Positions 17,084 to 35,651 of a DNA stretch of 64,000 nt are shown in pieces. Source of the stretch: Nitrosomonadales bacterium (lineage in GTDB: Bacteria > Pseudomonadota > Gammaproteobacteria > Burkholderiales > SG8-39); the NCBI GenBank assembly GCA_036676355.1, contig JAKFDA010000071.1:29924-93923 (forward strand), given 5' to 3'. A program made the translations under genes and the position numbers. Under the pieces are notes generated by a model. It had not been told where the DNA came from. It saw only the letters and a list, made by a program, of their open reading frames with translations, and did not search any database. How positions within the stretch are numbered: position 1 is the first letter of the stretch; every line of letters begins with the position of its first letter.

Positions 17084-18520
17084 ATGCCTAACAACACTAC
17101 AAAACCGGCACTTCTGATTGTTGATGACGATCCGCTCATCGCCGATACCCTCGCCTTCGCGCTGGGCAATGACTTTGCCGTCACACTGAGCGATTCACGC
17201 GCGCACGCCATCAGTTTGTTGCGTCAGATGGACGAGCCGCCGCACCTGGCGCTGGTGGATCTCGGCCTGCCTCCGACTCCGCATCGGCCCGATGAAGGCT
17301 TTCAGCTCATCGCGGACCTGCTTGCCCATTCGCCGAGCATCAAGATCCTCGTGCTTTCCGGCCAAAATGACGCCGCCAATGCGCGCCACGCGCGCACCCT
17401 CGGCGCCGCCGAGTTCGTGGCGAAGCCATGCGACCCGGACCACCTCAAGAAAATCCTGCTGCATGCGCTCGAATTCCGCAGCGCCGAAGTGTCGAGCAGT
17501 GCCGCGGTCGAAGCCGGCATGCTTATCGGCCGCAGCGCGGCGATGCAGAAGTTGCGCAGCCAGATCGGCCAGTACGCGGACTCGCCCTTCCCCGCGCTGA
17601 TCGAAGGCGAATCCGGCAGCGGCAAGGAAATCGTGTCCAATGCACTGCATCGCCTGTCGAGCCGCAAGGACAAACCCTGCCTGGCGTTGAACTGCGCGGC
17701 GATTGCGCCAACGCTGGTCGAGCCGACGCTGTTCGGCTACGTGAAGGGCGCTTTCACAGGCGCGCAGACCACCAAATCGGGCTACTTCGAAGACGCGGCC
17801 GACGGCACGCTGTTCCTCGACGAAATCGGTGAATTGCCGATGGAGTTGCAGGCCAAGCTGCTGCGGGTGCTGGAAAACGGCGAATATCAGCGCGTCGGCG
17901 AGACGCAACGTCGCTACAGCCGCGCCCGCGTCATCGCCGCGACCAACCGCGACCTGCGGCAGGAAATCAAAAAAGGGAATTTCCGCGCCGACCTGTATCA
18001 CCGCCTGTCGGTTTTCACTATCGGCGTGCCACCGCTGCGTGAAATGGATGAAGACAAACTGATGTTGCTCGAGCACTTCAGCGCCTTCTACGCCGAGCGC
18101 GCGAACCTGCCGCCGTTCATGCTCGACGAAAGCGCATTGAAACTGTGGCGGCACTATCACTTTCCCGGCAACGTGCGCGAACTGCGCAACATCGTCATTC
18201 GCCTGACGACGAAGTACGCGGGCCAGCGCTTGTCCTCGGTCGAACTGGAAGTCGAGCTCGACGTCGAGCATCAGGAGGGGTCGGGCGCACCCGAACTGGC
18301 GCTGCCGAATGATCCGGAAATCATCGTCGAACAGGCGCAGCGCCATTTGCAGCGCGAGCGCGCGTTCAATCTCGACGACATGCTGAAATCCTGGGAGCAG
18401 GGCTATATCGAAGCCGCGATGAAACTCACCCGCGGCAATGTCAGCCAGGCGGCCAAGTTGCTCGGCATCAACCGAACCACGCTCTACAGTCGAATGGAGT
18501 CGCTGCAAAAGCAGGCTTGA
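17084..18520 (+). CDS. Sigma-54-dependent response regulator (receiver + AAA+ EBP + Fis-type HTH), PrsR/AtoC-like
   Basis: ORF 16964..18520 trimmed to ATG 17084. The receiver carries LVDLGLPPTPHRPDEG. The AAA+ domain has Walker A GESGSGKE and the GAFTGA loop. The C-terminus has the HTH QAAKLLGINRTTLYSRM. Confidence 0.9.
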   Translation: MPNNTTKPALLIVDDDPLIADTLAFALGNDFAVTLSDSRAHAISLLRQMDEPPHLALVDLGLPPTPHRPDEGFQLIADLLAHSPSIKILVLSGQNDAANARHARTLGAAEFVAKPCDPDHLKKILLHALEFRSAEVSSSAAVEAGMLIGRSAAMQKLRSQIGQYADSPFPALIEGESGSGKEIVSNALHRLSSRKDKPCLALNCAAIAPTLVEPTLFGYVKGAFTGAQTTKSGYFEDAADGTLFLDEIGELPMELQAKLLRVLENGEYQRVGETQRRYSRARVIAATNRDLRQEIKKGNFRADLYHRLSVFTIGVPPLREMDEDKLMLLEHFSAFYAERANLPPFMLDESALKLWRHYHFPGNVRELRNIVIRLTTKYAGQRLSSVELEVELDVEHQEGSGAPELALPNDPEIIVEQAQRHLQRERAFNLDDMLKSWEQGYIEAAMKLTRGNVSQAAKLLGINRTTLYSRMESLQKQA

Positions 18521-18656
18521 GTTTTTCGCATAGAGGTACCGCTTTCTGAGCTTTTAAGGCAAAAGTAAGATCGCGGCCCTGCCCGACATTCGATCGAGCG
18601 GTCTGTCGAATCTGCTAGGCTGGCGCGACTTTTATTGAGCGGTCTTAAGTGGTCTT

Positions 18657-20036
18657 ATGTACCTGGCGCATTTCGGACTCGACGAACCACCCTTCCGCAT
18701 CACTCCGCACACCGAGTTCTTTTTTGAAGGTGCCAGGCGCGGAGCAACGCTCGAAGGGCTGATCTACGCCATCACCCACGACGAAGGCATCGTCAAGGTG
18801 ACGGGCGAAGTGGGCAGCGGCAAGACCATGTTGTGCCGCGTCCTGCTCGAACGAATGCCTGAATCGGTCGAGGTGCTCTACCTCGCCAACCCCTCCGTCT
18901 CGCGCGATGAGATCCTCGATGTGCTGGCCGCCGATCTCAAGGCCGAATCGGAGAGCAGCCACACCACCATCCGGATGCGCGCGCTGCAGGAGCGCCTTAT
19001 CGGGTTGTACGCTCAGGGTCGTCGGGTCGTCGTGCTGATCGACGAAGCGCACGCCATGCCGCTCGAAACCCTCGAAGAAATCCGGCTGCTGTCCAACCTC
19101 GAATCCAACCGCCACAAGCTGCTGCAGATCGTGCTGTTCGGCCAGCCGGAGCTGGATGAGCAGCTCGCACTGCCGCACATGCGGCAGCTGCGCGAACGCA
19201 TCACGCACAGTTTCCGCCTCGAACCGCTGGTCCGTCAGGACATCGAGAAATACATCGACTTTCGCATGCGCGCCGCAGGTTTTCGCGGACCGAATGTTTT
19301 CTCGGCGCCGGCACTGCGCGCCATCGTGGAGGCGTCAGAAGGACTGACGCGCCGCATCAACATCCTCGCCGACAAGGCGCTGCTCGCCGCTTTCGCCGAC
19401 GGCACGCACGAAGTGACAGCCAAGCACGCGCGCGCGGCGATTCTGGATTCGGACTACCGGAAACCACGGCCACGCCCCGGTCCATGGGCCATTGCGATCG
19501 CCGCGCTGGTCGTCGGCATCGCCATCGGTTTCGGCATGCGGTTCTTCGATACGCCCATTGCGGCTTCCGCCGCGACCGACATCGCCCCGATCGAGCCCGC
19601 TGTGGCGCCGGCGGGAACTGCATCCGGCGTATCGTCCGAAACGCCGCTTGCGCAACAGCCGGCCGACGTCGGCGCGCAAGTCGGAGCGGCGAACGATCAA
19701 CCGCAACTCGGGCCGCTTTCCCGCGAACGGTATGAGGCGACGCAAGCCTGGCTCGATACCGCGCCGGACGGACACTTCACCATCCACCTGATGACGGCGA
19801 CGAGCGCTCTACGCCTTGAGCACTTTCTGGCTGAAAGCGGCAAAGTTTTGGACCCGCAGCACTTCCACGTCTATGGCGTGAAACATGATGGTAAACAGCA
19901 CTACGCCGTCGCCTATGGGTTGTACCCGTCGGTCGAGACGACCATCGCCGCAATGGGCGACCTACCGGCTGCACTGAGAGCGAAAGGCCCATACCAACGC
20001 AGCATCGTTGTGATGCGTCGGCAAAACGCGCAATAA
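18657..20036 (+). CDS. ExeA/GspA/MshM-like AAA ATPase with TM anchor and C-terminal SPOR domain
   Basis: Walker A GEVGSGKTM and Walker B VVLIDEAH. One TM helix (WAIAIAALVVGIAIGFGM) is followed by a Pro/Ala linker. The C-terminal ~80 aa (HFTIHLM...HYAVAYGLYPSVETTIAAMGDLPAALRAKGPYQRSI) resembles the DamX-type SPOR fold. Confidence 0.85.
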   Translation: MYLAHFGLDEPPFRITPHTEFFFEGARRGATLEGLIYAITHDEGIVKVTGEVGSGKTMLCRVLLERMPESVEVLYLANPSVSRDEILDVLAADLKAESESSHTTIRMRALQERLIGLYAQGRRVVVLIDEAHAMPLETLEEIRLLSNLESNRHKLLQIVLFGQPELDEQLALPHMRQLRERITHSFRLEPLVRQDIEKYIDFRMRAAGFRGPNVFSAPALRAIVEASEGLTRRINILADKALLAAFADGTHEVTAKHARAAILDSDYRKPRPRPGPWAIAIAALVVGIAIGFGMRFFDTPIAASAATDIAPIEPAVAPAGTASGVSSETPLAQQPADVGAQVGAANDQPQLGPLSRERYEATQAWLDTAPDGHFTIHLMTATSALRLEHFLAESGKVLDPQHFHVYGVKHDGKQHYAVAYGLYPSVETTIAAMGDLPAALRAKGPYQRSIVVMRRQNAQ

Positions 20037-20166
20037 GTCGCAACTTCGACAGGCAACTGTTCGCATCCACATTCAGACGGCAAAACAATTTCTTAGCGTC
20101 GATGGTTATACTCGCCGCTAAACAACAACAAGCGGGCGCAATGCCCGCCTGATGTATGGGGATTCG

Positions 20167-21951
20167 ATGCTAAGACCTCTGATTGTTTGTGGGCTGGTCG
20201 TGGCGCTCGGGGGATGCTTTCAACCAATGAAAGCCTCGGACGGCCATCTCGAGCAATCTTCCGCGCCGCCCCCGGCGGCGAGCATTCCCATGCCCGTACA
20301 AACGCTACCGGCGTTGCCTCTGCCCAAACCCGCAGCGAAACTCGAAACCTTCAGCGTCACGGTGCACAACGTGCCGGCGCAGGAACTGCTCTTCGCGCTC
20401 GCGCGCGACGCCAATCTGAACGTCGACATCCATCCCGGCATTACCGGCACGGTGTCGTTGAACGCACTCGATCAAACACTGCCGCAGTTACTCGATCGCA
20501 TTTCAAAGCAGGTCGACATGCGTTACGAACTGGATGGGCCGAATCTGATGGTGATGCCCGATTCGCCCTTTCTGCGCATCTACAAAATCGATTACGTGAA
20601 CATGAGCCGGGAAGCGGAAGGCAAGATAAGCGCATCCGGTCAGATTACCAGCACCGGCACGAGCGGCGGCCAGACGGGCAGCGCGGCGAGCGGTTCCAGC
20701 ACGGCGAATTCGTCCACCATGACGATCACCAATCGATCCACCAATCAGTTCTGGTCGCGACTGGAACAGAATGTGCGCGACATCCTGCGAGAGACGGACA
20801 AGATTCTCCCCGCTCCCGCCACCGCGAGCGCAACCCCTTCGTCGGGCCCCGCCTCTGCGGTTTCAAATCTGGTAAACCAAGTAACGGGTACCGCAACAGC
20901 ACCCGCTCAACCCAGCGTCACTTTTCGCGAAGCAGCCTCTGTCATCGCGAACCCTGAAGCAGGCGTACTCTCGATTCGAGCAACAGCGCGACAGCACGAG
21001 AAACTCCAGGAATTTCTGGATCAGGTGCTGGTCAGCGCCAAGCGACAGGTATTGATCGAAGCGACGATTGTCGAGGTCCAACTCAGCAACGATTATCAGC
21101 AAGGTATCGACTGGGCGGCGCTGAGTGGCAGCGCCGGCTTCCAGTTACTGCAAGGCGGTCTTTATCGCGATCCCGCCACAACGCCCGGATTGCAACCACC
21201 GATACCGCTCACCGGCCTGCTGCCCGCCGATCCAACCCATAACCTGCAAGCCGCGCAGTACAACTCGAGCAACTTCAGAGCCACCCTGCGCCTTCTGGAA
21301 AGCTTCGGCAACGTGCGGGTGCTGTCGAGCCCGCGCATCAGCGTCATCAACAACCAGACCGCGGTCCTCAAGGTCGTCGACAACCTGGTCTACTTCAACG
21401 TCACTGCCGAAACCAATCAGAACGAGAGCACTTCGCTGACCACCTTCACCACGACGCCGCAAACCGTTTCGGTCGGTTTCATCATGAACGTAACGCCACA
21501 GATCGGCGAAGACGACTCCGTACTGCTGAATGTCAAGCCGACCATCCGCCGACTGATACGGATGGTCCCCGATCCGAATCCAACTCTGGCGCGCGAACAA
21601 ATCAATAACTTCGTGCCCGAAATACGAGAGCGGGAACTGGAATCCATGCTCAAGGTTGTCAACGGGCAGACTGCGGTCATGGGCGGTTTGATTCAGGACG
21701 AACTGGCAAACAACACCGATACGCTGCCGGGCGTGGGCGACATCCCGATTCTCGGCAATCTCTTCACCAACAAAAACAATGCAAACACCAAAACCGAGTT
21801 GGTGATTTTCCTCCGCCCAGTCGTGATTCGCGATCCAAGCATTAATGGTGATTACAACGAATACCGAGCCATGCTGCCCGGCGACGACTTCATGCGCCAA
21901 CCGCATCCGGCGCGCGCGCGCACCGCTCTCGGAAGCGAAGCGGCGCGATGA
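20167..21951 (+). CDS. Secretin, lipoprotein type (MshL/PilQ/GspD family)
   Basis: ORF 20152..21951; the second ATG at 20167 has a GGGGA RBS and gives MLRPLIVCGLVVALGGC with a lipobox. Ser/Thr-rich linkers follow. The C-terminal secretin domain reads VLSSPRISVINNQTAVLKV...LPGVGDIPILGNLF...TELVIFLRP. Confidence 0.9.
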   Translation: MLRPLIVCGLVVALGGCFQPMKASDGHLEQSSAPPPAASIPMPVQTLPALPLPKPAAKLETFSVTVHNVPAQELLFALARDANLNVDIHPGITGTVSLNALDQTLPQLLDRISKQVDMRYELDGPNLMVMPDSPFLRIYKIDYVNMSREAEGKISASGQITSTGTSGGQTGSAASGSSTANSSTMTITNRSTNQFWSRLEQNVRDILRETDKILPAPATASATPSSGPASAVSNLVNQVTGTATAPAQPSVTFREAASVIANPEAGVLSIRATARQHEKLQEFLDQVLVSAKRQVLIEATIVEVQLSNDYQQGIDWAALSGSAGFQLLQGGLYRDPATTPGLQPPIPLTGLLPADPTHNLQAAQYNSSNFRATLRLLESFGNVRVLSSPRISVINNQTAVLKVVDNLVYFNVTAETNQNESTSLTTFTTTPQTVSVGFIMNVTPQIGEDDSVLLNVKPTIRRLIRMVPDPNPTLAREQINNFVPEIRERELESMLKVVNGQTAVMGGLIQDELANNTDTLPGVGDIPILGNLFTNKNNANTKTELVIFLRPVVIRDPSINGDYNEYRAMLPGDDFMRQPHPARARTALGSEAAR

Positions 21952-23291
21952 GCCTGCTGCTCGATGCCCTGAAGCGCGCCGAAGAAGCCAAAAAGGCGCA
22001 GCGCGACGCGAATGAAGCGTCGCCGACTTCCACGGGCAACGAGCCGTTAAGCCTGGCGCCGCTGGACGAGCAGGGGTTCAGTGTAAGCGAAGGTGAAGTG
22101 CCGCCGCCGCTGATGACGCGCGACAAGCTGCCGAACATCAGTCAGTCGATGAGCATTCTGCCGGAAGATCTGTCAGTGCCACCGCAGCACCAGGCGAAGC
22201 CCGTCGAAAGCGTGAAGCGATCGAGCGACAATCGCCCGGCAAAGCAGTCCACGCAGAGCGCCTCGCTCGCATCCGCGCAGGCCGATCGAAACACCGCGCG
22301 ACAACTGTTCGAAGCCAAGGCGCCGAATTACGATCCACGTCGGCCCTTCTACATCGTGCTCGGTGCGCTGGGCATCTTCGCCGTCGGCGCAATCGCCTAT
22401 TTCTGGTATCAGCTTCAACCACCCGCTTTCGCGAGTCGCAAGACAACACCGCCGCAAAGCGCAGTGGAACGCACCACTGAAGCACGCGTCGCCTCGAACA
22501 CTCAATCGATTAGCAATGCTTTAGCCGCAACCGGCGGGGCATCGCCCGAAACGGCGGCTGCAAATGACGCGACCGCAATTTCGGTGGAGCCGCCGACGCC
22601 ACCAATGCGTCCCGCTCAATCTCGAGCAACGCCGGCGCCTCGTGAGACCCTCACCGCTCCGACAGCGCCCGCGCAACGCGACACGCGTAACGCCGATCAC
22701 ATCACGCTGATCAAATCCAGGCCGCACGGTCCGTCAGCGGCGGAACGGGGTTATACGGCTTTCGAGAGCGGCGATCTGGTCGCGGCGCGCACCCATTACC
22801 AGGCGGCGCTTACTGAAGATCCGCTCAGTCGCGACGCGCTGCTGGGCCTGGCCGCGATCGACATGCGTGAGCAGCATTACACGAGCGCCGAAGCACGCTA
22901 CGTCAGGCTGCTGGAAATCGATCCGCGCGACCCGTACGCACATGCCGGCCTGATCGGACTGCGCGGCCGCAGCGATCCCGTTGCGACGGAAAGCCGCATC
23001 AAGAATCTGCTCGCGCAACGACCGGATGCGAATGTCCTGCACTTCACGCTCGGCAATCAATATGCGACTCAGGGACGCTGGCCCGAGGCACAGCAAGCCT
23101 ATTTCAGGGCCTACTCGACCGACCCTGCGAATCCGGATTATGCGTTCAACCTTGCGGTGAGCCTCGATCAACTGCGGCAAAGCAAGCTGGCGCTCGAGTA
23201 CTATCGGAAGGCGCTGTCGCTTTCGAGCGCGCGGCCGGCGACTTTTCTTCCCTCTCAAGCGGAAGCTCGCATTCGTGAACTCGGCCGCTAA
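21948..23291 (+). CDS. TPR-repeat assembly protein with one TM segment (MshN-like)
   Basis: ATGA overlap with the secretin stop. The N-terminus is MSLLLDALKRAEEAKK, with a TM segment FYIVLGALGIFAVGAIAYFWYQL and TPR-like repeats in the C-terminal ~200 aa. Confidence 0.75.
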   Translation: MSLLLDALKRAEEAKKAQRDANEASPTSTGNEPLSLAPLDEQGFSVSEGEVPPPLMTRDKLPNISQSMSILPEDLSVPPQHQAKPVESVKRSSDNRPAKQSTQSASLASAQADRNTARQLFEAKAPNYDPRRPFYIVLGALGIFAVGAIAYFWYQLQPPAFASRKTTPPQSAVERTTEARVASNTQSISNALAATGGASPETAAANDATAISVEPPTPPMRPAQSRATPAPRETLTAPTAPAQRDTRNADHITLIKSRPHGPSAAERGYTAFESGDLVAARTHYQAALTEDPLSRDALLGLAAIDMREQHYTSAEARYVRLLEIDPRDPYAHAGLIGLRGRSDPVATESRIKNLLAQRPDANVLHFTLGNQYATQGRWPEAQQAYFRAYSTDPANPDYAFNLAVSLDQLRQSKLALEYYRKALSLSSARPATFLPSQAEARIRELGR

Positions 23292-23310
23292 TGTCACGGA
23301 GATTTTGCCA

Positions 23311-25014
23311 ATGGGCGCTTCGGCGCACGTCAAGCGCCACATCGGACAGATACTGATCTCGCAGGGCATCCTGACCGAAGATCAGTTGCGCATCGCGCTG
23401 CTGGAGCAGCTCAAATCGCGTCAGCCGGTCGGCCGATTGCTCGTGCAACTTGGATTCGTCTCGGAAGCAACGCTGCGCGACGCACTGTCCGAAAAGCTCG
23501 GACTCAAGAGTGTCGACCTGTCGCAGATCGTGGTCGACTCCACCGCCATCCGTCTGGTGCCGCGCGAGTTCGCCAAGCGTTACAACGTATTCCCGGTCGC
23601 GGTCGATCGCGAACGCGATGTGCTGATCCTGGCCATCTCGGACACGAACAATATCGTCGCGCTCGATCAGGTACGCGCGCAACTGCGCGGTCAATACGAA
23701 CTTGAATTGCGCCTGTCGGGCGAGTCGGAAATCGCCCGCGCCGTCGATCACTTCTACGGCCATGAATTGTCGATCGACGGCATCCTGCACGAGATCGAAA
23801 CCGGCGAAATCGATTACCAGAGTCTGCAAGCCGCAGGCGACGAATACAGTCAACCGGTTGTGCGGCTCGTATCCGCCCTGCTGGCCGATGCGGTGGAACG
23901 CAACGCCTCGGACATTCACTTCGAGCCGGAAGCGAATTTTCTGCGCATCCGCTATCGCATCGACGGTGTGTTGCGACAGATCCGCTCACTGCACAAGACC
24001 TACTGGCCGGCGATGGCGGTGCGCATCAAGGTGATGGCGAAAATGAATATCGCCGAAACCCGTGCGCCGCAGGACGGCCGGATTTCGCTTTCGCTCACCG
24101 GTCGGCAAGTCGATTTCCGCGTCGCATCGCAAGTGACGACGCACGGCGAGAACATCGTCCTGCGGATTCTCGATCGGCAGAAGGGCATCGTGCCGCTGGA
24201 CGGTCTCGGTCTGCAGGAAGAGCACCTCACCATGCTCAAGCGCATGATCGCGCGTCCCGAAGGCATCATTCTCGTCACCGGCCCGACCGGCAGCGGAAAA
24301 ACCACGACGCTGTATTCGATCCTGAATCACATCAATCACGACGGGGTCAACATCATGACCCTCGAAGATCCGGTCGAATATCCGATGACGCTGATTCGCC
24401 AGACCTCGGTGAACGAAGCGGCCAAGCTGGATTTCGGCAACGGCATCCGGTCGTTGATGCGACAGGACCCGGACATCATTCTGGTCGGCGAAATTCGCGA
24501 CGAAGACACGGCGCAAATGGCTTTTCGCGCATCGATGACCGGCCACCAGGTGTATTCGACGCTGCATTCCAATTCGGCCATCGGCGCGATCCCGCGTCTG
24601 CTCGACACCGGGCTGTCGGCCGAGGTGCTCGCCGGCAACGTCATCGGCATCATCGCGCAGCGCCTGGTACGCCGGCTGTGCAAACACTGCCGCCAGATTC
24701 ACGAGCCAAGCGATATCGAACGCAGGCTGCTCGGCATCCAGCCAGGCAACTCACAACGCATCTACCGGGCGGTCGGGTGTGACCACTGCGAGTTCCAGGG
24801 TTACAAGGGGCGGCTCGCCATCATGGAGTTGCTCAAGATCGATCCGGAAATCGACGAAATGATGGCTAATCGAGCCACCGCCCGGGAACTGCTGCGCAAG
24901 GCGCTGGAAAAAGGTTTCCATACCCTGGCGGATGACGGCGTCCGGCGCGTGCTGGACGGCTCGACCGCGCTGGACGAACTCATGCGCGTGGTGGATCTGA
25001 CCGACCGGATGTAG
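23311..25014 (+). CDS. GspE/PilB/MshE-family type IV filament assembly ATPase
   Basis: Walker A GPTGSGKTTTLYS, tetracysteine CKHC...CDHC and an N-terminal T2SSE_N/MshEN-like tandem motif. The start is ATG 23311; GTG 23275 is an alternative. Confidence 0.93.
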   Translation: MGASAHVKRHIGQILISQGILTEDQLRIALLEQLKSRQPVGRLLVQLGFVSEATLRDALSEKLGLKSVDLSQIVVDSTAIRLVPREFAKRYNVFPVAVDRERDVLILAISDTNNIVALDQVRAQLRGQYELELRLSGESEIARAVDHFYGHELSIDGILHEIETGEIDYQSLQAAGDEYSQPVVRLVSALLADAVERNASDIHFEPEANFLRIRYRIDGVLRQIRSLHKTYWPAMAVRIKVMAKMNIAETRAPQDGRISLSLTGRQVDFRVASQVTTHGENIVLRILDRQKGIVPLDGLGLQEEHLTMLKRMIARPEGIILVTGPTGSGKTTTLYSILNHINHDGVNIMTLEDPVEYPMTLIRQTSVNEAAKLDFGNGIRSLMRQDPDIILVGEIRDEDTAQMAFRASMTGHQVYSTLHSNSAIGAIPRLLDTGLSAEVLAGNVIGIIAQRLVRRLCKHCRQIHEPSDIERRLLGIQPGNSQRIYRAVGCDHCEFQGYKGRLAIMELLKIDPEIDEMMANRATARELLRKALEKGFHTLADDGVRRVLDGSTALDELMRVVDLTDRM

Positions 25015-25148
25015 CGGCTTCCGGCGTCTGTTCCGTCGCCCCGCAGGCTGAAAAGGGTGAAGGGCTTCACAAGCGTCCGCCTCTGCCGGTTTGACCATTC
25101 CCTTCAACGCGTTAACGTAGGCATCCGGATCTTCCCGACGTTCCATTC

Positions 25149-26348: not shown

Positions 26349-26358
26349 GCAACGCAAC

Positions 26359-27891: not shown

Positions 27892-28490
27892 ACGGCCGTC
27901 GTTTCCATCTTCTCGGCGCCGCGGGAATTGGCGCAGCCCTGATCGTCGCAGGTGTCGCCGCCTTGTACGCAGCAACGTCCTATGTCGATGCGCTTAAGGC
28001 GGAACAGAAGAACGCATTGCAACAACGAAAGCAGTCGGAAGAAAAACTCGCGCGGATTCGTATCGAGGGAGAGGAAATCGATTTGCGCGTGGCGAAGTAC
28101 GAACTGCTCGTCGCGCGCGGCGTGATCGGCGACGAACGCAGGCTCGACTGGATCGAGGCGCTGGAGCAGATCCGCGCGAGCGATCCTGCGCGGCAACTCC
28201 GCTACGCGATCGCGCCGCAGAAGGCGCTCGATTACGCCGTAGCCGGGACGGCGGACGTATCCGCACGTACCAGCCAGCTAAAGCTGGATGCAGTCGTCCT
28301 GCATGAAGAGCGCTTCCTGGGATTGCTGAGCGAACTGCGCGCCGCACTGCCGGCCCATATGCTGATCAGATCGTGCGCGCTCGATCGGCCGGTCGCCGCA
28401 GTCGCGACCGCGGCCGGCGCCGGCCTGAACGTCAGTTGCGTGCTGGACCTCGTCACGATCACCGATCAGGGAAAGGAAAAGGCGCCATGA
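27888..28490 (+). CDS. Bitopic assembly protein, tentatively PilO/GspM/MshJ-like
   Basis: ATGA overlap with the upstream gene. The 200-aa product has an N-terminal TM (LLGAAGIGAALIVAGVAALYA), a charged coiled-coil-like stretch and a C-terminal globular part. Confidence 0.5.
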   Translation: MNGRRFHLLGAAGIGAALIVAGVAALYAATSYVDALKAEQKNALQQRKQSEEKLARIRIEGEEIDLRVAKYELLVARGVIGDERRLDWIEALEQIRASDPARQLRYAIAPQKALDYAVAGTADVSARTSQLKLDAVVLHEERFLGLLSELRAALPAHMLIRSCALDRPVAAVATAAGAGLNVSCVLDLVTITDQGKEKAP

Positions 28491-28858
28491 AACGCAACGT
28501 GACGCTTTTCGCACTTCCCCTCGTACTAATGCTTTCGGGCTATTTCACCGAAGCCTTCGCTGAACAAAGATTGGGGCGGCTGTTCTACACCCCCGACCAA
28601 CGCGTCGCGATGGAGCGCCAAGTCGTCGACGACAGCGCTGCAACCACCGATTCACGCATAACGATCAATGGACGCATTACCCGATCGGACGGCAAAAGCA
28701 TCACCTGGGTCAACGGCACGCCCGACTATGACTCGCAATCCCCTGGCACGCCGAATCGCCGCAGCAAGGTCGGTCAATCCATCGACGCAGGAACGGGCGA
28801 AGTGCATGATGGTTTGCGGGGAGGTAGCCTTGTTATCAAACGCAAACCGACACATTAG
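28487..28858 (+). CDS. Small secreted protein, tentatively PilP/MshK/GspC-HR-like
   Basis: ORF 28373..28858 trimmed to ATG 28487, which forms an ATGA overlap. The signal peptide is MKRNVTLFALPLVLMLSGYFTEAFA. The product is 123 aa, with RITINGRITRSDGKSITWVNG suggesting a beta-rich domain. Confidence 0.5.
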   Translation: MKRNVTLFALPLVLMLSGYFTEAFAEQRLGRLFYTPDQRVAMERQVVDDSAATTDSRITINGRITRSDGKSITWVNGTPDYDSQSPGTPNRRSKVGQSIDAGTGEVHDGLRGGSLVIKRKPTH

Positions 28859-30521
28859 GCAACATGGCCGCCGCGTTAAACAGCGCGGATATACCGCGAT
28901 ATTGATGGTTGTCGCCTTGGTAATGGGCTCTCTGGCGTTTGTCGTACGAGGCATGACCAGTTCGGACATGAGGCACGCGCAAGAAGGACAGACCCGACAA
29001 GCACTTGCTCAAGCAAAAGAAGCTCTTATAGCCTGGTCCGCTACGCATGCATCACAACCCGGAGCGTTGCCGTGCCCGGATACAAACGGTGACGGATACG
29101 CGGATACTGATATAGCGCCAGCGAATAGCGTCCTTGACGCCACTCCTACACCTGCTCAAGACGCCACACGTAACAATAACGCCTTGGCGGGTGGTTATTG
29201 CAGTACTGCGGCACGGCGAATTGGTCGTCTGCCCTGGAGAACATTGCGGCTGCCCGAGTTAACCGACGTCTCTGGAGAACCGCTTTGGTACGCTCTTTCG
29301 GACCATTTTCGGCGATTAGGAAGCCGAAAAATCAATAGCAACACCCGCGGGCAACTGACTATTACTGGCGTTGCGCGAGCGAATGATGTTGTAGCGATTA
29401 TTTTCGCGCCCGGCCCAGCAATTGATGGACAGAATCGCAATGCTGCGAATCTCAATAACATCGCGCATTACCTTGAAGGCGCGAACGCAGACGCCGATGC
29501 ATTGAACCAATTTGAAACGGCGATCGGAAGTGCGTCATTTAACGACCAATTGATGCCCGTACGAGAAGATGATCTGTTCGAAATTGTAGAAAACGCTGTC
29601 GCCAGCCGGGTAACCTCAATGCTGCGGTATTACCGCGATCAATGGAAACAGCCCTCACCTTCCGGCATTGCAAAACCGATTTTCCCCTTCGCTGCGCCTG
29701 CCGATCCCAATCAAACAGTGGCTGACTTCTGCGGAGTTATACCGCCAGCAGGACAACCAAGCGAAGGACTGTTGCCAATTAGCGAAGAGCCAACCTGCAT
29801 CAGATGGACTAACCCATCAATATCGGAACCTGCCGGACGAGTTACGAACCTAGTCTGCCAAGATCAATCGGGGTCTGTCCCACCGTCTGAACCAGATGAG
29901 GATCGGATGGCTGCCATGGTATGCACATTCGACTACAGCGTTGGAAGCGGAAGTAACTCACCGTTTGTCATCCGCGCACGTGTTCAGAGTGCTGCAATGA
30001 CCTTGGCTTTACCGATAAAGCTAAGTGATATTAAGTATGGGGCCGCACCATATGCGGGCCAAAATCTTGGGCTAGAAATTGCTCAGTCTTTTATAGGTGG
30101 CGACTTAGAAGTGATGTACACAGGAGTAATTCCCCCGGGCGCAGGGTCCGCCAGGATCGTTTTTCCCATCTACTCCTTGCGAATCAAATATCCTTTATCG
30201 GAGGGAAAGACAACTGCGTGGTTTTTCAACAATGAGTGGTATCGCTTTACTTACTACGCAGTGATCCCACAACGATTAGCCAACTCGTCGGGGAATTGTT
30301 TGCCGGGAACTGATTGCTTAACGGTGTCCGGTTTATCTGCGCCTGCCGACGCAGAGGCTATCTTGGTATCTGCCGGTGGCGCGCTTCAAAATCAAACAAG
30401 GCCGAGCAGCGATATCAGCGACTATTTTGAATGGCAAAACGCTTCTGTCGGTGATCGTGTATTTGAAAAGCATCGCAGGACGCCTCAATTTAACGATCAG
30501 ATGCGCATAGTTTCGCCATGA
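28806..30521 (+). CDS. Large GspK/PilX-like minor pseudopilin (prepilin-like N-terminus lacking Glu5)
   Basis: ORF 28668..30521. The N-terminal KQRG|YTAILMVVALVMGSLAF resembles a prepilin cleavage site and hydrophobic helix, but with Leu at +5. The start is uncertain (ATG 28806/28809, TTG 28827 or ATG 28908). The product is about 570 aa and the gene has lower GC. Confidence 0.6.
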   Translation: MMVCGEVALLSNANRHIRQHGRRVKQRGYTAILMVVALVMGSLAFVVRGMTSSDMRHAQEGQTRQALAQAKEALIAWSATHASQPGALPCPDTNGDGYADTDIAPANSVLDATPTPAQDATRNNNALAGGYCSTAARRIGRLPWRTLRLPELTDVSGEPLWYALSDHFRRLGSRKINSNTRGQLTITGVARANDVVAIIFAPGPAIDGQNRNAANLNNIAHYLEGANADADALNQFETAIGSASFNDQLMPVREDDLFEIVENAVASRVTSMLRYYRDQWKQPSPSGIAKPIFPFAAPADPNQTVADFCGVIPPAGQPSEGLLPISEEPTCIRWTNPSISEPAGRVTNLVCQDQSGSVPPSEPDEDRMAAMVCTFDYSVGSGSNSPFVIRARVQSAAMTLALPIKLSDIKYGAAPYAGQNLGLEIAQSFIGGDLEVMYTGVIPPGAGSARIVFPIYSLRIKYPLSEGKTTAWFFNNEWYRFTYYAVIPQRLANSSGNCLPGTDCLTVSGLSAPADAEAILVSAGGALQNQTRPSSDISDYFEWQNASVGDRVFEKHRRTPQFNDQMRIVSP

Positions 30522-31189
30522 ATGTAGGTCCACCGCGTCGCGCCTTGATGCAACACGGCTTCACTTTGGTCGAAGTGGCCATCGTAATGATAATTGTCGG
30601 CCTGCTTCTAGGTGGGGCCATCATGACTCTGACCGCGCAAATGGAAATCCGAAACAGAGCCGAAACCCGGGACACACTGGAGCGCGCACGTGAGGCGCTG
30701 TTAGGCTTTGCCGCAGCCAATGGAAGGCTTCCTTGCACAGCATCGGGGATCGGGGCGACACCACAGGTTAGAGCTAGCGAAAACTGTACGATTAGCTCTG
30801 ACGGATTCTTTCCGGCATCAACGCTCGCTATTGGCCCTACTGACCCTGAGAGCGGTCTACTAATCGATGCCTGGGGACGTCCGATTCGCTATGCGGTCAC
30901 CGATCAAGGCGGCAACGCATTCACAACATCGGGCAAGATGCAGGCACTGGGCATATCGAACCTGGATCCCGATCTAGTCATCAAAAACCGGAGCAATCAG
31001 ATCCTCACCGATAAAGTGGTAGCGGTGCTGATCTCGACCGGCAAGACGACGACTAGTGGTGTCGATGAAAATACTAATAGCGACCGTTTTTTTGTAAGCG
31101 ATGCCGAAGACGCCACGTTCGATGATCTTGTACTACCGCTTTCCCCGTACACGCTCTACAGCCGCATGATCGCCGCTGGCGCACTCTGA
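30518..31189 (+). CDS. Prepilin-type N-terminal cleavage/methylation domain protein (minor pilin/pseudopilin)
   Basis: ATGA overlap with the upstream gene. The N-terminus is MNVGPPRRALMQHG|FTLVEVAIVMIIVGLLLGG, with Glu5 present. The product is 223 aa. Confidence 0.88.
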   Translation: MNVGPPRRALMQHGFTLVEVAIVMIIVGLLLGGAIMTLTAQMEIRNRAETRDTLERAREALLGFAAANGRLPCTASGIGATPQVRASENCTISSDGFFPASTLAIGPTDPESGLLIDAWGRPIRYAVTDQGGNAFTTSGKMQALGISNLDPDLVIKNRSNQILTDKVVAVLISTGKTTTSGVDENTNSDRFFVSDAEDATFDDLVLPLSPYTLYSRMIAAGAL

Positions 31190-31335
31190 GACTTTTTCCT
31201 CATTCCTTAATGTGCACTGCCGACAATTAGCCAAGTTGCGGCAGCATTTCGTGGTTCTTGCTCATCCGGCTTCGTAGAATCGATTCCGCATGCAGATCGC
31301 ATGTACCGATCGGCGGCATTCCAACACCAAAAAAT

Positions 31336-32625
31336 ATGAGCACGCTTCAAGAGCTGGCCAACCGTCTGCGTACCGCGGGCATCGAACCCGGCGATTCGGA
31401 GGAACTGCGCCTCAAGAAATCGCTGCTGATGTTCGCCATGGGGCTGACCACCATCGCACCGGTGGCATGGCTGGTCGTGTACTGGGCGCTCGGCTCGAAG
31501 ATCTCCGCGACGGTGCCGTTCGCGTACCAACTCGTATCGCTTTCGACGCTGGTGCTGTATCTCGCCACGCGGAATTTCGATCTGTTCCGCATCCTGCAGC
31601 TCAGCCTTTATCTCTTCTTTCCTTTTTTCCTGCAGTGGTCGCTCGGCAATTTCATTACCTCCAGCGGCGTGGTGTTGTGGGGTTTGCTGGCGCCGGTCGG
31701 TGCGATTCTCGTTTATAGCGCGCGCGATTCGATTCCCTGGTTTGTCGCGTACATCGCGCTCATCGCCGTTTCGGCCTTCTTCGACTATCAACTGGCCGAT
31801 GCGGCAGCGGCCACGGCCCTGGAGATTCCACAACAGGCGAGCGTGATCATCTTCGCGCTGAATTTCGCCGCGATGTCGAGCCTCGTTTATTTCATGCTGC
31901 GCTATGCGTCCATCGAGCGTGAAAAATCGAACGCGCGCCTGGCAGATGCGCACGTCAAACTCAAGATTGAGCAGGAACGATCGGAGCGACTGCTGTTGAA
32001 CATTCTCCCCGGCCCGATCGCGGAGCGACTGAAGCAGCAGGACGGCACGATTGCGGACGGCTTCGCCGACGTGACGGTGATGTTCGCCGACATCGTGAAT
32101 TTCACGACCATCGCGGAAGGCATGTCACCGAATCAGATCTTCGCCATGCTGAACAAGGTGTTTTCATCGTTCGATGCGCTGGCGGACAAGCACGGGTTGG
32201 AAAAAATCAAGACGATCGGTGATGCCTATATGGTCGCGGGCGGCTTGAATGACGGCGACACCGATTACGCGGAAGCGATCGCACAAATGGCGATCGACAT
32301 GCATGAAGTGCTGGCGCAGGAACCAGCGCTGAACGATCAACGCCTCGAACTGCGTATCGGCATCGGGACCGGACCGGTCGTTGCGGGTGTCGTCGGCAAG
32401 AAGAAGTTCATCTACGACCTGTGGGGCGATACGGTGAATATCGCCAGCCGCATTACCGGCGAAGGCGCACCGGGAAATATCCACGTCGATGCGACGACCT
32501 ATCGCCGCATCCGCAGCCGATTCGATTTCGATTCGCCGCGAACGGTGTATTTGAAAGGCAAGGGCGACACGGCCGTTTATCGGTTGATAAGCCGCAAGGC
32601 TGTGGCAAAGCAGGCGGTCGGTTAA
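31336..32625 (+). CDS. Membrane-anchored class III adenylate cyclase
   Basis: ORF 31258..32625 trimmed to ATG 31336. The N-terminal ~200 aa form a polytopic domain. The CHD catalytic domain has metal-Asp FADIVNFT, EKIKTIGDAYM and YDLWGDTVNIASR. The Lys/Asp specificity pair is typical of ATP-utilising enzymes. Confidence 0.88.
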   Translation: MSTLQELANRLRTAGIEPGDSEELRLKKSLLMFAMGLTTIAPVAWLVVYWALGSKISATVPFAYQLVSLSTLVLYLATRNFDLFRILQLSLYLFFPFFLQWSLGNFITSSGVVLWGLLAPVGAILVYSARDSIPWFVAYIALIAVSAFFDYQLADAAAATALEIPQQASVIIFALNFAAMSSLVYFMLRYASIEREKSNARLADAHVKLKIEQERSERLLLNILPGPIAERLKQQDGTIADGFADVTVMFADIVNFTTIAEGMSPNQIFAMLNKVFSSFDALADKHGLEKIKTIGDAYMVAGGLNDGDTDYAEAIAQMAIDMHEVLAQEPALNDQRLELRIGIGTGPVVAGVVGKKKFIYDLWGDTVNIASRITGEGAPGNIHVDATTYRRIRSRFDFDSPRTVYLKGKGDTAVYRLISRKAVAKQAVG

Positions 32626-32687
32626 TACCCGACCATTCCATTTGCCCCGATATTCAATGGATGGCGACCATTCATACTTGCCCCGCC

Positions 32688-32788: not shown

Positions 32789-32828
32789 CTCATCACCAAC
32801 GGCCTCACCATGCGCTCACCAGCATTGC

Positions 32829-34547
32829 TTAGGCGGCGAGCACGTGCCGCTCCACGGAAAGCGCCCCGGCGAGTTGAAAGCACACGCGCCCCGGCAAATT
32901 CGAAACGATGCTGAGTTCGAATCCCGCTTCACGCGCCTGGCGCGCCACCTGATACAAGCCCACACCGTATCCGGTCTCCGAATGCACCGGACCCCGCAAC
33001 AGTTTGCGCATGATGTCGTCCGGGACCGGTGCGCCGGTATCGAAAACGGCGAATTGCACGCGCTCGCCGCAGTCGAAACGTACCTGCACTCTTACCGAAG
33101 GATCGAGCCGGCGTTTGCCCAGCGCGTTCTGCAACAGATTTTCAGCCGCGGTATCGAACAGTTCCTTCGGCAGCAGAATGTTCGCGCCGATCTCGACGCC
33201 CTCGAATTCGACGTCGAGCGTCTGGTGCAATTTCTTGAGCTGGTCCCACCACGCTACGGCCTGGATCAGGCGCGTGCTGTCGGTTTCGGGACGCTGCAGC
33301 TTCTCCATGGTGCCCTGCAGACGCTGAGCGATGGTCGGCAAATGCCGGCGTATCAGCGCGTTGAGCGCGACCGGATCTTCGTTTCGTTCCGCCGCCGAAC
33401 ACAGCACATTGAGCGACTGCAGCAGGTTCTTCACGTCATGCGTCACCTTCGCGCCGGTCTGGTGCAGGGCGTGCATATAGGTTTGCTCGCGCAGCGTGCG
33501 CTCCTTCAATTTTGCGACATAGAACTGCGCCAGCAACTGGCCAAGCAAATTGAAATGCCACATGAGCGCGGGCCCCGGGCGCACGCGGCTGTACAGACGC
33601 ACCGTAAACTCGTTGCACTCGTATTCGATCGGGAAATTCGTTTCCGTGCCGAAATCGCCGGCGGCAAGCACCGTTTCCCAACGCCCTCCGGCGACCCACG
33701 GCAGACGCCCCAGATCTTCGCAAGCGCCATTCAAGAGCTGATCGGGATCCGTTTCGGCGCGCGATAGCGACGCGAGAAAGCGCAGCCATTGTTCGAACGG
33801 CAAGCCGATGGACAACAGATAGCGCGAGAACAGCATCGAAAGGCCGGAAACGCCCGCTCGGGGATTCCACGCCAGACTGAGTACGATCAATACCGATGCG
33901 ATGGTCAGCAACGTGTACGTCAGCGCCATCGGGTAGTTGATGCTCTGAACCACCATGAACGCAAAGCTGCCGAGCGCCAGCGCAAGCAGGAGCAGGAAGA
34001 GCAGCGCGGCGTAGAACAGATCGACGATCTGCGGCTCGGCCGGATCCGACTCGGACGGCATCAGCCACATGCCGACGAAGAGCAGCGGCAGGCCGTACTG
34101 CACGACTTGTAACAGGGCGGGATCCTGCACGCCCATGGCGAAACCGTTCGGCACGACCCACACGAGGAACAGTGTGGCGAGGTAGAAGAAGGTCATCAGG
34201 TAAAACAAACGCTGCCAGCGCGCGCGGAACAGAAACACCTTGCCGCCGACAATGCCCGCCAGCAGCGCCGTCCACAGACCGAGCATGGCCCAGTTGAGGA
34301 AGGCCATCAGCGCGGTCGCGACGACGGCGATCAGCAGAATCTGCGTGATGCGCAGTTGTTGCTGCGTGCGCATGAACGGTTGCCACAGCATGAAGAGTCC
34401 GATGTGCGCAACCATCAACCCGCGCGCCCACAGATCATCCACGCCCATCATGGCGGCCACGTGGAGACAGCCAAGCATGGCGATGACCAGCGACGGCCAA
34501 TGGCGACCGGAGACCTTTTCCGCGAACTGATAGACTTGTTGCCTCAC
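32829..34547 (-). CDS. Polytopic sensor histidine kinase (PrsK-like H-box)
   Basis: 572 aa with a GTG start. The N-terminal ~280 aa are almost entirely hydrophobic segments with short loops. The H-box is TGAKVTHDVKNLLQSL, the N-box AAENLLQNALGK, and the G-boxes FDTGAPVP and GYGVGLY. Confidence 0.88.
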   Translation of the reverse strand: MRQQVYQFAEKVSGRHWPSLVIAMLGCLHVAAMMGVDDLWARGLMVAHIGLFMLWQPFMRTQQQLRITQILLIAVVATALMAFLNWAMLGLWTALLAGIVGGKVFLFRARWQRLFYLMTFFYLATLFLVWVVPNGFAMGVQDPALLQVVQYGLPLLFVGMWLMPSESDPAEPQIVDLFYAALLFLLLLALALGSFAFMVVQSINYPMALTYTLLTIASVLIVLSLAWNPRAGVSGLSMLFSRYLLSIGLPFEQWLRFLASLSRAETDPDQLLNGACEDLGRLPWVAGGRWETVLAAGDFGTETNFPIEYECNEFTVRLYSRVRPGPALMWHFNLLGQLLAQFYVAKLKERTLREQTYMHALHQTGAKVTHDVKNLLQSLNVLCSAAERNEDPVALNALIRRHLPTIAQRLQGTMEKLQRPETDSTRLIQAVAWWDQLKKLHQTLDVEFEGVEIGANILLPKELFDTAAENLLQNALGKRRLDPSVRVQVRFDCGERVQFAVFDTGAPVPDDIMRKLLRGPVHSETGYGVGLYQVARQAREAGFELSIVSNLPGRVCFQLAGALSVERHVLAA

Positions 34548-34862
34548 GCTATTCCCCGATTGCGATGTGCTGAGCGGTGACTAAAGCGACGATTATTCCA
34601 GCGTCGTTGAACAACGCGCGGCACTACTTGTCATCTATGCCTTTCGGATAAATGAAATCGGCATGAATCCTGATTAAGCTTGCATGTGCTGAAGCTGCGG
34701 TGAGGAAGCGAAAGCAAAAAACACGATGGCTCAAGGCAGACGATGTTGAACAGATGGCCGATCGCGATGCACGTATGTCGCCAAATCGACGTTTTCGTCG
34801 ACTCTCCGACATCGGCGTCGCCCGAAACACGTGATTTCGTTGATAAACACGCAAAAATCCGC

Positions 34863-34878
34863 TGGCATCCAGCTTGCT
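34863..34878 (+). promoter_or_regulatory. Sigma-54 (-24/-12) promoter of the pilin gene
   Basis: TGGCAT-CCAGC-TTGCT matches the consensus TGGCAC-N5-TTGCW, with GG-N10-GC spacing exact. It lies 56 nt upstream of ATG 34934. Confidence 0.8.
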
Positions 34879-34933
34879 CACGCCAGTCATAAAACCGCTC
34901 ATCAGAGCGAGACAACCGAGTAGGAAATAGAAC

Positions 34934-35596
34934 ATGTCCAATTACACGATGGAGCGCCGTCAGAAGGGCTTCACCCTTGTCGAGATCGCCATCGTTCTCG
35001 TCATCATCGGCCTGCTGCTCGGCGGTGTGCTGAAGGGGCAGGAGTTGATCAATAGCGCGAAAGTCAAGAATATGGCCAACGACTTTCGTAACGTGCCGCT
35101 CTATATTTACGGCTATCAGGATCGCTTCAAGGCGCTGCCTGGTGACGACATCAAAGCGAACACCAACCTTCCTAAGGACAGCGCCGGTGTTGACGCTAAA
35201 GAAGGGGATGGCGACGGCAAAATCGGGGGTATTTGGTCCAGCACTACCCCCAGCGATGAATCCGCGCGCTTCTGGCAGCATGTACGTCTTGCTGGTCTAG
35301 CCACCGGCGCAACAAGCCCGGGCGACGATGGGTACTATCCGACGAACGTCGACGGCGGGCGTATTGGCGTGCAAAGTATGGCTTCGTCCTACATCAGCGG
35401 AATGACCGGCGCCTATCTCGTTTGTTCGGGCGGCATTCAGGGACGATATGCCAAACAGCTTGATGCGACCTTGGATGACGGTATACATAACACTGGCTCC
35501 ATGCGGGTTGTGCCAAAGAATCACACCGCAGGAAACGCCGCGCCCGCTACTGCACTCGTGGATGACGACACATACAGCGTTTGCATGGCTCTCTAA
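34934..35596 (+). CDS. Prepilin-type major pilin candidate (220 aa)
   Basis: An AGGA RBS sits 8 nt upstream. The N-terminus is MSNYTMERRQKG|FTLVEIAIVLVIIGLLLGGVL, with Glu5 present. There are exactly two Cys (LVCSGG and SVCMAL) near the C-terminus. It is followed by a strong terminator. Confidence 0.88.
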   Translation: MSNYTMERRQKGFTLVEIAIVLVIIGLLLGGVLKGQELINSAKVKNMANDFRNVPLYIYGYQDRFKALPGDDIKANTNLPKDSAGVDAKEGDGDGKIGGIWSSTTPSDESARFWQHVRLAGLATGATSPGDDGYYPTNVDGGRIGVQSMASSYISGMTGAYLVCSGGIQGRYAKQLDATLDDGIHNTGSMRVVPKNHTAGNAAPATALVDDDTYSVCMAL

Positions 35597-35628
35597 AATC
35601 GTCGCGTTAGCCGTCAGAGTTTGTGAGG

Positions 35629-35651
35629 AGCCCGCTTCGGCGGGCTTTTTC
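35629..35651 (+). terminator. Rho-independent terminator after the pilin gene
   Basis: AGCCCGC-TTCG-GCGGGCT followed by TTTTTC. Confidence 0.85.

Follow-up and report, generated by a model that had tools for sequence, protein, structure and literature searches.

The 64-kb window analysed here, a stretch of contig JAKFDA010000071.1 from a Nitrosomonadales bacterium, contains a locus of about 18 kb with fourteen genes. From our comparative, domain and structure-prediction analyses, we conclude that these genes probably encode a type IV filament machine that is chromosomal and vertically inherited and belongs to the branch comprising the mannose-sensitive haemagglutinin (MSH) pili and the type II secretion systems (T2SS), most likely a surface pilus for attachment. 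All fourteen genes are intact and have lengths like those of their orthologues. Coordinates are positions in the window throughout, and genes lie on the plus strand unless marked otherwise. Genes were called from the map of open reading frames (ORFs) together with Pfam and NCBIfam scans of the window proteins. An earlier description of this DNA, made from its letters and translations and here called the sequence-only reading, had listed the same fourteen genes, and both their positions and their identities hold (Table 1).

Secretin, motor and platform

The secretin passed the MshL equivalog model TIGR02519 with 265.1 bits (cut-off 250.2) and failed other secretin models, including those for GspD (177 bits, cut-off 351) and PilQ (127 bits, cut-off 284). 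The secretin thus lies inside the MshL family (265 versus 250 bits), which counts in part against the idea of the sequence-only reading that the machine may be a distinct subtype. In a PDB search with the secretin, GspD matches outscored PilQ matches. A plasmid collection was also searched with the secretin for annotated Vibrio-type msh loci and yielded one MshL-annotated record, from Legionella adelaidensis; over 535 aa, the secretin is 28% identical to the MshL-annotated protein of that Legionella locus.

Two proteins encoded on either side of the secretin gene extend the resemblance to MSH systems. In the AAA protein, a transmembrane (TM) helix at residues 279-297 joins a cytoplasmic AAA_22 domain to a periplasmic tail. 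Over 296 aa it has 41% identity with the AAA protein encoded in the Legionella MSH-like locus, and it reached 218 bits, below cut-off, with TIGR03015 (pepcterm ATPase). The SPOR tail once ascribed to it is partly borne out: the tail weakly resembles the SPOR end of DamX (E 2.7e-6), but Pfam SPOR did not match it. The TPR protein has a TM helix at residues 134-152, with its TPRs in the periplasm.

The assembly ATPase carries an N-terminal c-di-GMP-receptor domain. The c-di-GMP motif model NF053729 scored 57 (cut-off 38), and the first 164 residues matched the N-domain of Vibrio cholerae MshE (5htl, E 3e-16) as well as the c-di-GMP-binding domains of PilF. The tandem 24-residue motif of MshEN, with its 5-residue spacer, is present in 58 of 59 ATPase orthologues, and the Walker A and tetracysteine motifs in all 59. 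The MshEN domain is also found in PilB and PilF and hence is not exclusive to MSH. Over its full length the ATPase scored below both cut-offs, with 525 bits for GspE (cut-off 630) and 505 bits for PilB (cut-off 676), and the ATPase of the Legionella MSH-like locus is 38% identical to it. The platform protein scored 299 bits with GspF (cut-off 424) and 256 bits with PilC.

A tblastn search with the locus ATPase found no second T2SSE-family ATPase in the 64-kb window, although a PilT elsewhere in the genome is possible, and a search with Escherichia coli GspO found no prepilin peptidase in the same 64 kb. The sequence-only reading had reported both absences, correctly, but had taken them for a departure from known systems. 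They are none, because MSH loci normally lack both genes (PMC6668835).

Conservation and chromosomal setting

The locus is flanked by mlaE/mlaF (minus strand) on one side and by a KefB/C-type antiporter gene on the other, as assigned by Pfam and NCBIfam, which agrees with the placement between an mla operon and a kefB-like gene proposed earlier. Because the series kdsD, kdsC, lptC, lptA, lptB, rpoN, ptsN, hprK and rapZ continues 3' of kef (37392-46145), the locus lies inside a widely conserved mla / lpt-rpoN neighbourhood. The rpoN gene at 41496-42935 places a sigma-54 gene about 6 kb from a sigma-54-dependent pilus locus.

When one genome per GTDB species was scanned by pattern, 205 species proved to encode a relative of the 510-aa protein u510, and the best 80 of these 205 were fetched. 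All these genomes are metagenome-assembled and labelled Burkholderiales, Betaproteobacteria or similar, and represent an uncultured soil and groundwater lineage. By tblastn with the window proteins, the gene order was the same in essentially all 80 loci, as far as the contigs reach: regulator, AAA protein, secretin, TPR protein, ATPase, platform, u510, u200, u123, u617, pilin, in some cases the cyclase, kinase on the opposite strand, one or two major pilin genes, and often kef. The same order was found in more distant relatives reached through u617. The architecture is therefore a conserved feature of the lineage and not a one-off. Identity to the window proteins across the 80 loci was 67-86% for the ATPase, 65-82% for the regulator, 42-60% for the kinase, and 26-46% for u510, u200, u123, u617 and the pilins. 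No description of this arrangement was found in the literature searched.

Many related loci occupy the same mla / kef-kdsDC-lptCAB-rpoN site, with the kef flank in many and mlaF in several. Since the locus is syntenic at one chromosomal site in many related species, it is not accessory DNA, as the sequence-only reading had called it. A mobile island was considered and rejected in view of the conserved flanks, and neither an integrase nor an adjoining tRNA gene was seen at the locus. The sole Rfam match in the window is one tRNA gene at 52963-53033, far from the locus.

Within the locus, ATGA overlaps at 27888, 28487 and 30518 were read directly in the sequence and bear out the translational coupling noted before. 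The G+C content falls to 0.54-0.57 in 28001-32000, a segment that covers u617, the 223-aa pilin gene and the start of the cyclase gene, and is about 0.61 elsewhere. These low-G+C genes are also the least conserved of the locus.

Table 1. Genes and other features of the type IV filament locus, in window order
Feature	Position	Strand	Basis
ABC ATPase gene, probable relic (3' end)	16964..17026	+	LMVLRPGVLYFAGRLGALCDH versus MVVLHQGVPYFSGAPRALCEH of the related locus L004, 52% identity over 21 aa
NtrC-family sigma-54 enhancer-binding response regulator	17084..18520	+	Response_reg, Sigma54_activat, AAA_lid_14, HTH_8
MshM/GspA(ExeA)-like AAA ATPase	18657..20036	+	AAA_22, E 1.6e-27
Lipoprotein secretin, MshL type	20152..21951	+	Secretin and Secretin_N_2 domains, LGGC lipobox
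Bitopic TPR protein, MshN position	21948..23291	+	Several TPR families over residues 260-430; conserved position
Assembly ATPase, MshE/GspE/PilB type	23275..25014	+	T2SSE, E 1.9e-125; N-terminal MshEN c-di-GMP-receptor domain
GspF/PilC/MshG-type inner-membrane platform	25149..26348	+	T2SSF, two repeats
u510, 510 aa: PilM-like actin-fold domain, TM helix and PilN-like periplasmic domain	26359..27891	+	Predicted structure
u200, 200 aa, bitopic	27888..28490	+	ATGA-coupled; single TM helix 8-26; conserved in 78 loci
u123, 123 aa, small secreted periplasmic protein	28487..28858	+	Signal peptide, conserved beta-rich motifs
u617, about 571 aa, large pilin-like protein	28806..30521	+	Class III-type N-terminus without Glu5 (QRG/YTAIL)
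Minor pilin, 223 aa, G/FTLVE	30518..31189	+	N_methyl; motif scan
Membrane-anchored class IIIa adenylate cyclase, Rv1625c/mammalian type	~31336..32625	+	Guanylate_cyc, E 1e-54
Polytopic sensor histidine kinase	32829..34547	-	HATPase_c; PrsK-like catalytic core, E 7e-18
Candidate upstream activator elements	34786..34839	+	Inverted repeat TCGACGTTTTCGTCGA, motif CGTGATTTCG
Sigma-54 (-24/-12) promoter of the major pilin gene	34863..34878	+	TGGCATCCAGCTTGCT; TGGCAT-N5-TTGCT
Major type IVa-like pilin, 220 aa	34934..35596	+	N_methyl, short leader, G/FTLVE, C164-C217 pair

Candidates for the alignment complex

The AlphaFold2 model of u510, built from an alignment of 33 relatives, has a predicted local distance difference test (pLDDT) score of 84 and shows an N-terminal actin-like domain, one long TM helix (311-329) and a periplasmic alpha/beta domain. 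A Foldseek search of the PDB with this model returned PilM (E 1e-10), FtsA and the cytoplasmic domain of GspL/EpsL (E 1e-6), and Pfam GspL_C was weakly matched by 4 of the 33 family members. Because of these matches u510 is, by its predicted fold, a PilM-PilN fusion of the GspL/MshI type. About 126 close relatives were detected, none of them named and none with Pfam domains; a HMMER scan of 1.84 billion cluster representatives extended the family to 2966 metagenome clusters, 1389 of them below 1e-30.

The two small proteins encoded next, u200 and u123, were scanned against Pfam and NCBIfam, as was u617, both as single sequences and through every member of their 31-35-sequence alignments, and none of the three gave a meaningful match. 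Profiles of all four families, those of u510 and u617 included, also matched no PDB sequence apart from the hint for u200 given below. For u200, neither the single sequence nor the members of the family alignment gave a meaningful Pfam, NCBIfam or PDB-sequence match. Its profile searched against PDB sequences gave only a hint of the TM and coiled-coil region of PilN (E 0.18), and hhalign assigned a probability of 3% to a PilN/PilO-type paralogy with u510. The u123 family has conserved motifs (LGRLFFTPQQR...VNG.V.RSSGKTTTW.NG...KVGQTLD) and matched no family in Pfam or NCBIfam, nor any PDB sequence by profile. When the family profiles were aligned by hhalign with the PilM, PilN, J-like, K-like and 563-aa proteins of the Legionella MSH locus, only the N-terminal TM segment of u617 aligned. 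Because no sequence method ties u200 or u123 to any family, we infer their roles from size, topology and position: u200 may act as PilO/GspM/MshJ does, and u123 as PilP/MshK does. The missing family matches are not unusual in themselves, since the J-like and K-like proteins of Legionella have no Pfam match either.

Pilin-like proteins

A six-frame regular-expression scan of the locus found exactly three prepilin-type N-termini, two with Glu5 and one, that of u617, without it, in agreement with the three prepilin-like genes counted before. The major pilin is the best defined of the three. In an alignment of 28 orthologues its first 60 residues are nearly invariant and its C-terminal Cys pair is conserved; its profile matched Neisseria PilE over 110 residues (E 1e-4), and only 21 N-terminal residues of MshA (9lab, E 0.29). 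The 223-aa pilin matched the GspG model over its N-terminal 69 residues (E 2.6e-8).

The largest of the three, u617, has 690 detectable relatives, among which a QxG plus hydrophobic N-terminus lacking Glu5 is conserved and several motifs with Cys and Trp are invariant. Its AlphaFold2 model (pLDDT 83.5, predicted TM-score 0.80) combines a pilin-like N-terminal helix of about 50 residues (29-80) with a globular body. Foldseek found no PDB fold match for this model (best E 0.016, TM-score below 0.15) and no GspK, CofB or TcpB among the matches, and Pfam, including T2SSK, matched none of 35 family members. The protein had been called GspK-like. Because neither T2SSK nor any PDB fold matched, that likeness is confined to the N-terminus, which lacks Glu5, and does not reach the body. 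We propose u617 as the tip or initiator subunit of the filament. The Legionella adelaidensis record ('plasmid 24', 8018-19442) is an MSH-like locus that also encodes a large pilin-like protein, of 563 aa and with FG-GAP/beta-propeller-like matches. A single very large pilin-like protein may thus recur in MSH-type loci, with unrelated bodies.

Some of these features would also suit a type II secretion-like machine, in which a short periplasmic pseudopilus of three pilin-like proteins pushes folded substrates through the secretin. The T2SS models outscore those of the type IVa pilus (T4aP) for the ATPase (GspE 525 versus PilB 505), the platform (GspF 299 versus PilC 256) and the secretin (GspD 177 versus PilQ 127), and the GspD matches stand above the PilQ matches in the PDB; u510 is fused as is typical of GspL, the AAA protein is bitopic like GspA/ExeA, the 223-aa pilin resembles the N-terminus of GspG, and u617 lacks Glu5, as GspK does. 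We nevertheless consider such a machine unlikely. The secretin exceeds the cut-off of MshL and not that of GspD, and no T2SS equivalog cut-off is reached by any component. A GspC with a PDZ domain and a GspH/I/J set are missing: tblastn with E. coli GspC, H, I, J, K, L and M found no match in the window, where the L, M, C and K queries are too distant to help, and GspG matched the pilin N-terminus only. The pilin under sigma-54 control has about 208 residues when mature, a C-terminal disulfide pair and PilE-like features, whereas GspG is a calcium-stabilised protein of 140 aa. The fold of u617 is not that of GspK, and the locus contains no conserved candidate gene for an exoprotein.

Regulation

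Control by sigma-54 and a two-component system appears to be built into the locus, as had been suggested: the kinase and the regulator are present in every locus whose contig reaches them. The regulator scored 365 bits with the NtrC model and 361 bits with the PrsR model (cut-off 503), both below cut-off, and GAFTGA is kept in all 49 orthologues. The kinase has about 7-8 TM segments in residues 1-225, and its H-box THDVKNLLQSLN and its N and G boxes are invariant (24 of 24 orthologues). Its membrane sensor part of 340 residues had no Pfam match. The kinase is probably the cognate partner of the locus regulator.

A PrsK-PrsR pair of the PEP-CTERM/XrtA system was considered and rejected, given the PrsR score above and a PrsK score of 64 (cut-off 300) in which the catalytic core alone aligns. 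The best or near-best NCBIfam matches of four locus proteins are parts of that system, namely PrsR for the regulator, the pepcterm ATPase for the AAA protein, PrsT for the TPR protein and PrsK for the kinase, all below cut-off. A common origin of the regulatory pair may lie behind these scores, rather than a connection in function.

The sigma-54 element before the major pilin gene, already recognised in the sequence-only reading, is conserved across the family. It lies 56 nt before the ATG of the gene, and 50 of 53 loci have GG[CT]A[CT]N5[TA]TGC no more than 160 nt upstream of the pilin gene, compared with 0.3 expected from shuffled sequences; the other three loci have near-variants. Further upstream, the inverted repeat of the window reads TCGACG-N4-CGTCGA. 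Among the same 53 loci, CGTGA[TA]T was found in 22 and GTCG..CGAC repeats in 23, with about one expected. The CGTGATTT(C) motif recurs upstream of the promoter, often within a GTGA-N6-TCAC palindrome, about 25 nt before the -24 box. The GTCG..CGAC repeats and the CGTGATTT motif are candidate sites for the activator or for integration host factor (IHF).

The best PDB matches of the cyclase are AC9/AC8/AC5 and mycobacterial Cya, and its Lys (EKIKTIGD) and Asp (YDLWGD) form the pair typical of adenylate (ATP) specificity. Its ORF opens at 31258, but we place the start at the ATG at 31336 because orthologue lengths favour it. The cyclase is an optional module: 26 of 57 loci have it, among them every locus of the sub-clade closest to the window. 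The embedded cyclase and sensor kinase of the earlier description are therefore both real, but the cyclase is not a constant part of the locus.

The ABC-transporter module and the reduced form of the locus

In 55 of the fetched loci, and in the loci L084 and L085, two extra plus-strand genes lie between the kinase and the pilin genes. They encode a permease of the ABC-2 family (ABC, ATP-binding cassette) and a membrane-anchored helical protein of 240 aa. The same relatives have an ABC ATPase gene directly upstream of, and overlapping, the regulator gene (examples of the module are L001:12767-14274 and L029:369-1106). The window has neither the ABC ATPase nor the permease and its 240-aa partner, and its kinase-pilin gap measures 386 nt. 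A short segment upstream of the regulator gene is a probable relic of the C-terminus of the ABC ATPase (Table 1). Given this relic, and the presence of the module in nearly all relatives, the window copy is a reduced form of the canonical locus of the family that has lost the ABC module. The nearest relative with usable context (L086, 57% identity) also lacks an ABC ATPase gene at this place, mlaF and the regulator gene being direct neighbours. Its contig does not extend to the kinase-pilin gap, and so it shows the absence of the ATPase only and not the status of the permease and its partner. A distant copy on a 1-Mb contig (L083:12374-15086) is also without the ABC module. Of its ORFs, one of 322 aa contains only part of a cyclase domain, and a kinase-like one of 500 aa gave no HATPase_c match; this copy may be decaying.

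These observations raise the question of whether the window copy is itself a decaying remnant, whose machine stopped working once the ABC module was lost. The ATPase is missing in both the window and L086, the window also lacks the permease and partner kept by 55 or more relatives, a relic of the ATPase gene remains, and the module-less L083 carries the truncated cyclase and altered kinase just described. We regard decay as improbable, however. The fourteen remaining genes of the window are intact and as long as their orthologues, the ATPase, kinase, regulator and cyclase have kept their catalytic motifs, and the sigma-54 promoter is intact. The loss is moreover common to a relative of only 57% identity, from which we take it to be old and tolerated.

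Proposed mechanism and function

In the mechanism that we propose for an attachment pilus of this kind, the outer-membrane channel is the MshL-type lipoprotein secretin, and the motor is the GspE/PilB-class ATPase, paired with the GspF-type platform. The bitopic AAA protein, with its peptidoglycan-binding-like tail, and the TPR protein would help the secretin through the wall, as is thought for ExeA/ExeB and MshM/MshN. Binding of c-di-GMP by the ATPase may gate extension, as in Vibrio MshE. An alignment complex would be built around u510 and completed by u200 in the role of PilO/GspM and by u123 in the role of PilP/MshK. The 220-aa pilin would make up the body of the filament, u617 would cap and prime it, and the 223-aa pilin would join u617 to the major pilin. 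The kinase might sense a membrane-borne signal, possibly the pilin pool as PilS does, and phosphorylate the regulator, which would in turn set the pilin supply through sigma-54 transcription of the pilin gene. In one sub-lineage, that of the window, the membrane adenylate cyclase would add a cAMP output. The prepilin peptidase and any retraction ATPase would be supplied from elsewhere in the genome, as in known MSH systems.

Several observations weigh against this interpretation. The ATPase and the platform reach no NCBIfam equivalog cut-off, and MshEN motif I of the ATPase (residues 22-45; 23338-23409) begins with His-Ile-Gly where Arg-Leu-Gly is canonical (58 of 59 orthologues). There are only two non-major pilin-like proteins, and T4aP, T2SS and Vibrio MSHA use four or more. 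For u200, u123 and u617, no homology to known alignment or minor-pilin proteins was detectable. The window copy could be impaired, because it is without the ABC module that 55 or more relatives have kept. All carriers are uncultured, and the machine is known from its genes alone.

An attachment pilus is also not the only filament that such genes could build. DNA uptake (competence), or some other non-adhesive function, is served by type IV filaments of the same branch in other bacteria (PMC6668835), and a small pilin set with a large tip protein would suit a specialised role. We consider this very improbable: no ComEA, ComEC or DprA-type gene is linked to the locus in any of the 80 loci, and an ATPase with a c-di-GMP receptor, together with a secretin of the MshL type, speaks for an MSHA-type pilus used in attachment.

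The locus overturns nothing known. Type IV filaments have central roles in attachment and biofilm formation, in motility, in DNA uptake and in secretion. To our knowledge, nearly all subtypes described so far are from cultured members of the Gammaproteobacteria, Myxococcota and Firmicutes. A widespread, uncultured lineage of soil and groundwater Burkholderiales carries its own conserved version, whose pilin set is minimal, whose tip protein has an unmatched fold and whose operon includes its own sensing, through the kinase, the c-di-GMP receptor and sometimes cAMP. It provides a test case for how few minor pilins a secretin-dependent filament needs, for the coupling of pilin expression to membrane sensing, and for the role of the ABC module in pilus clusters, for which natural variants with and without the module exist.

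Comparison with known systems

MSH systems are defined by mshA, E, G, L and M (Denise et al. 2019, PMC6668835), and their loci are generally single and without a prepilin peptidase, the absence of a retraction ATPase also being normal (PMC6668835). With the MSHA loci of Vibrio cholerae and Shewanella the present locus shares the MshL-type lipoprotein secretin that passes TIGR02519, adjoined by an ExeA-like AAA protein (MshM) and a TPR protein (MshN), the MshE-type ATPase with its MshEN c-di-GMP domain and a platform that may be of the MshG type, a PilM-PilN-type (MshI-like) protein followed by two small partners, and the confinement to a single locus without prepilin peptidase or PilT. The order differs, being M-L-N-E-G-I-J-K-pilins here and I-J-K-L-M-N-E-G-(F)-pilins in the canonical loci. 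The annotated MSH-like locus of Legionella adelaidensis runs pilins, PilM, PilN, J-like, K-like, MshL, AAA, x, GspE. Because it keeps I-J-K-L-M-N-E, the rearrangement in the window, M-L-N-E-G and then I/J/K-like genes, is real, as the sequence-only reading had maintained. Other differences from MSHA are the bitopic AAA protein, whose extra TM helix and periplasmic tail are not typical of MshM, the two non-major pilin-like proteins, the larger of unmatched fold, a major pilin that is not detectably MshA-like past its N-terminus, J/K-like proteins without sequence similarity to known ones, a dedicated sigma-54 two-component system, the ABC module of most members and the adenylate cyclase of one sub-lineage.

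T2SS (Gsp/Eps/Exe) have in common with the locus the fused, GspL-like u510, the bitopic GspA/ExeA-like AAA protein and a capping pilin-like protein without Glu5, and the core components score slightly nearer to Gsp than to Pil models. The locus differs in having no GspC and no GspH/I/J, in reaching no Gsp equivalog cut-off, in a major subunit that is a large disulfide-bonded pilin under sigma-54, and in a u617 that is not GspK by fold or by Pfam.

The T4aP clusters of the Myxococcus/Geobacter type (pilS-pilR-pilA-pilGHI) resemble the locus in the sensor kinase, the NtrC-type sigma-54 regulator and the major pilin of about 208 aa, all encoded beside the pilin gene (PMC6060248, PMC11046646). In Myxococcus an ABC module, pilGHI, lies beside pilS-pilR-pilA (PMC6060248), and the canonical form of the present family likewise has an ABC module beside the pilin gene, the likeness to pilGHI being one of gene setting. 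The core is different, being MshL/MSH-like and falling short of the PilQ and PilB equivalogs (127 bits, cut-off 284, and 505 bits, cut-off 676), and the locus has no PilT or PilD. Its kinase has a different sensor domain and a PrsK-like core.

In Pseudomonas aeruginosa, PilS-PilR controls pilA, and CyaB/cAMP-Vfr controls the type IV pili. The locus would follow the same logic, in which a polytopic kinase and a sigma-54 enhancer-binding regulator control transcription of the major pilin gene and pilus function is linked to a class III adenylate cyclase in the membrane. Here, by contrast, the signalling genes lie within the machine locus, the kinase lacks the PAS and HisKA domains that Pfam sees in PilS, and the cyclase is of the Rv1625c/mammalian type with no MASE2 match. 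In type IVb pili, the minor-pilin set is dominated by one large initiator (TcpB, CofB), presumed to sit at the tip and to prime assembly. The locus shares with them a minimal set of minor pilins that includes one large pilin-like protein (500+ aa), but neither CofB nor TcpB was among the Foldseek matches of u617, the pilin leader is short and type IVa-like, and the PilM/N-type alignment proteins have no known counterpart in type IVb systems.

Whether these differences amount to a separate class can be answered only tentatively. The locus might represent a type IV filament subtype of its own that has not been described before and that branches next to the MSH clade, not within it; we regard this as a serious but doubtful possibility. 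Such a subtype would be defined by its own gene order, a giant tip protein of new fold without Glu5, PilO/PilP substitutes that are not recognisable as such, a sigma-54 two-component system with a new sensor, and the ABC module. As an MSH-branch attachment pilus, which remains our preferred reading, the locus has a core that is recognisably MSH-like and belongs to a well-known superfamily, while its gene order, minimal pilin set, unmatched tip fold, built-in sensing and optional ABC module are features of its own.

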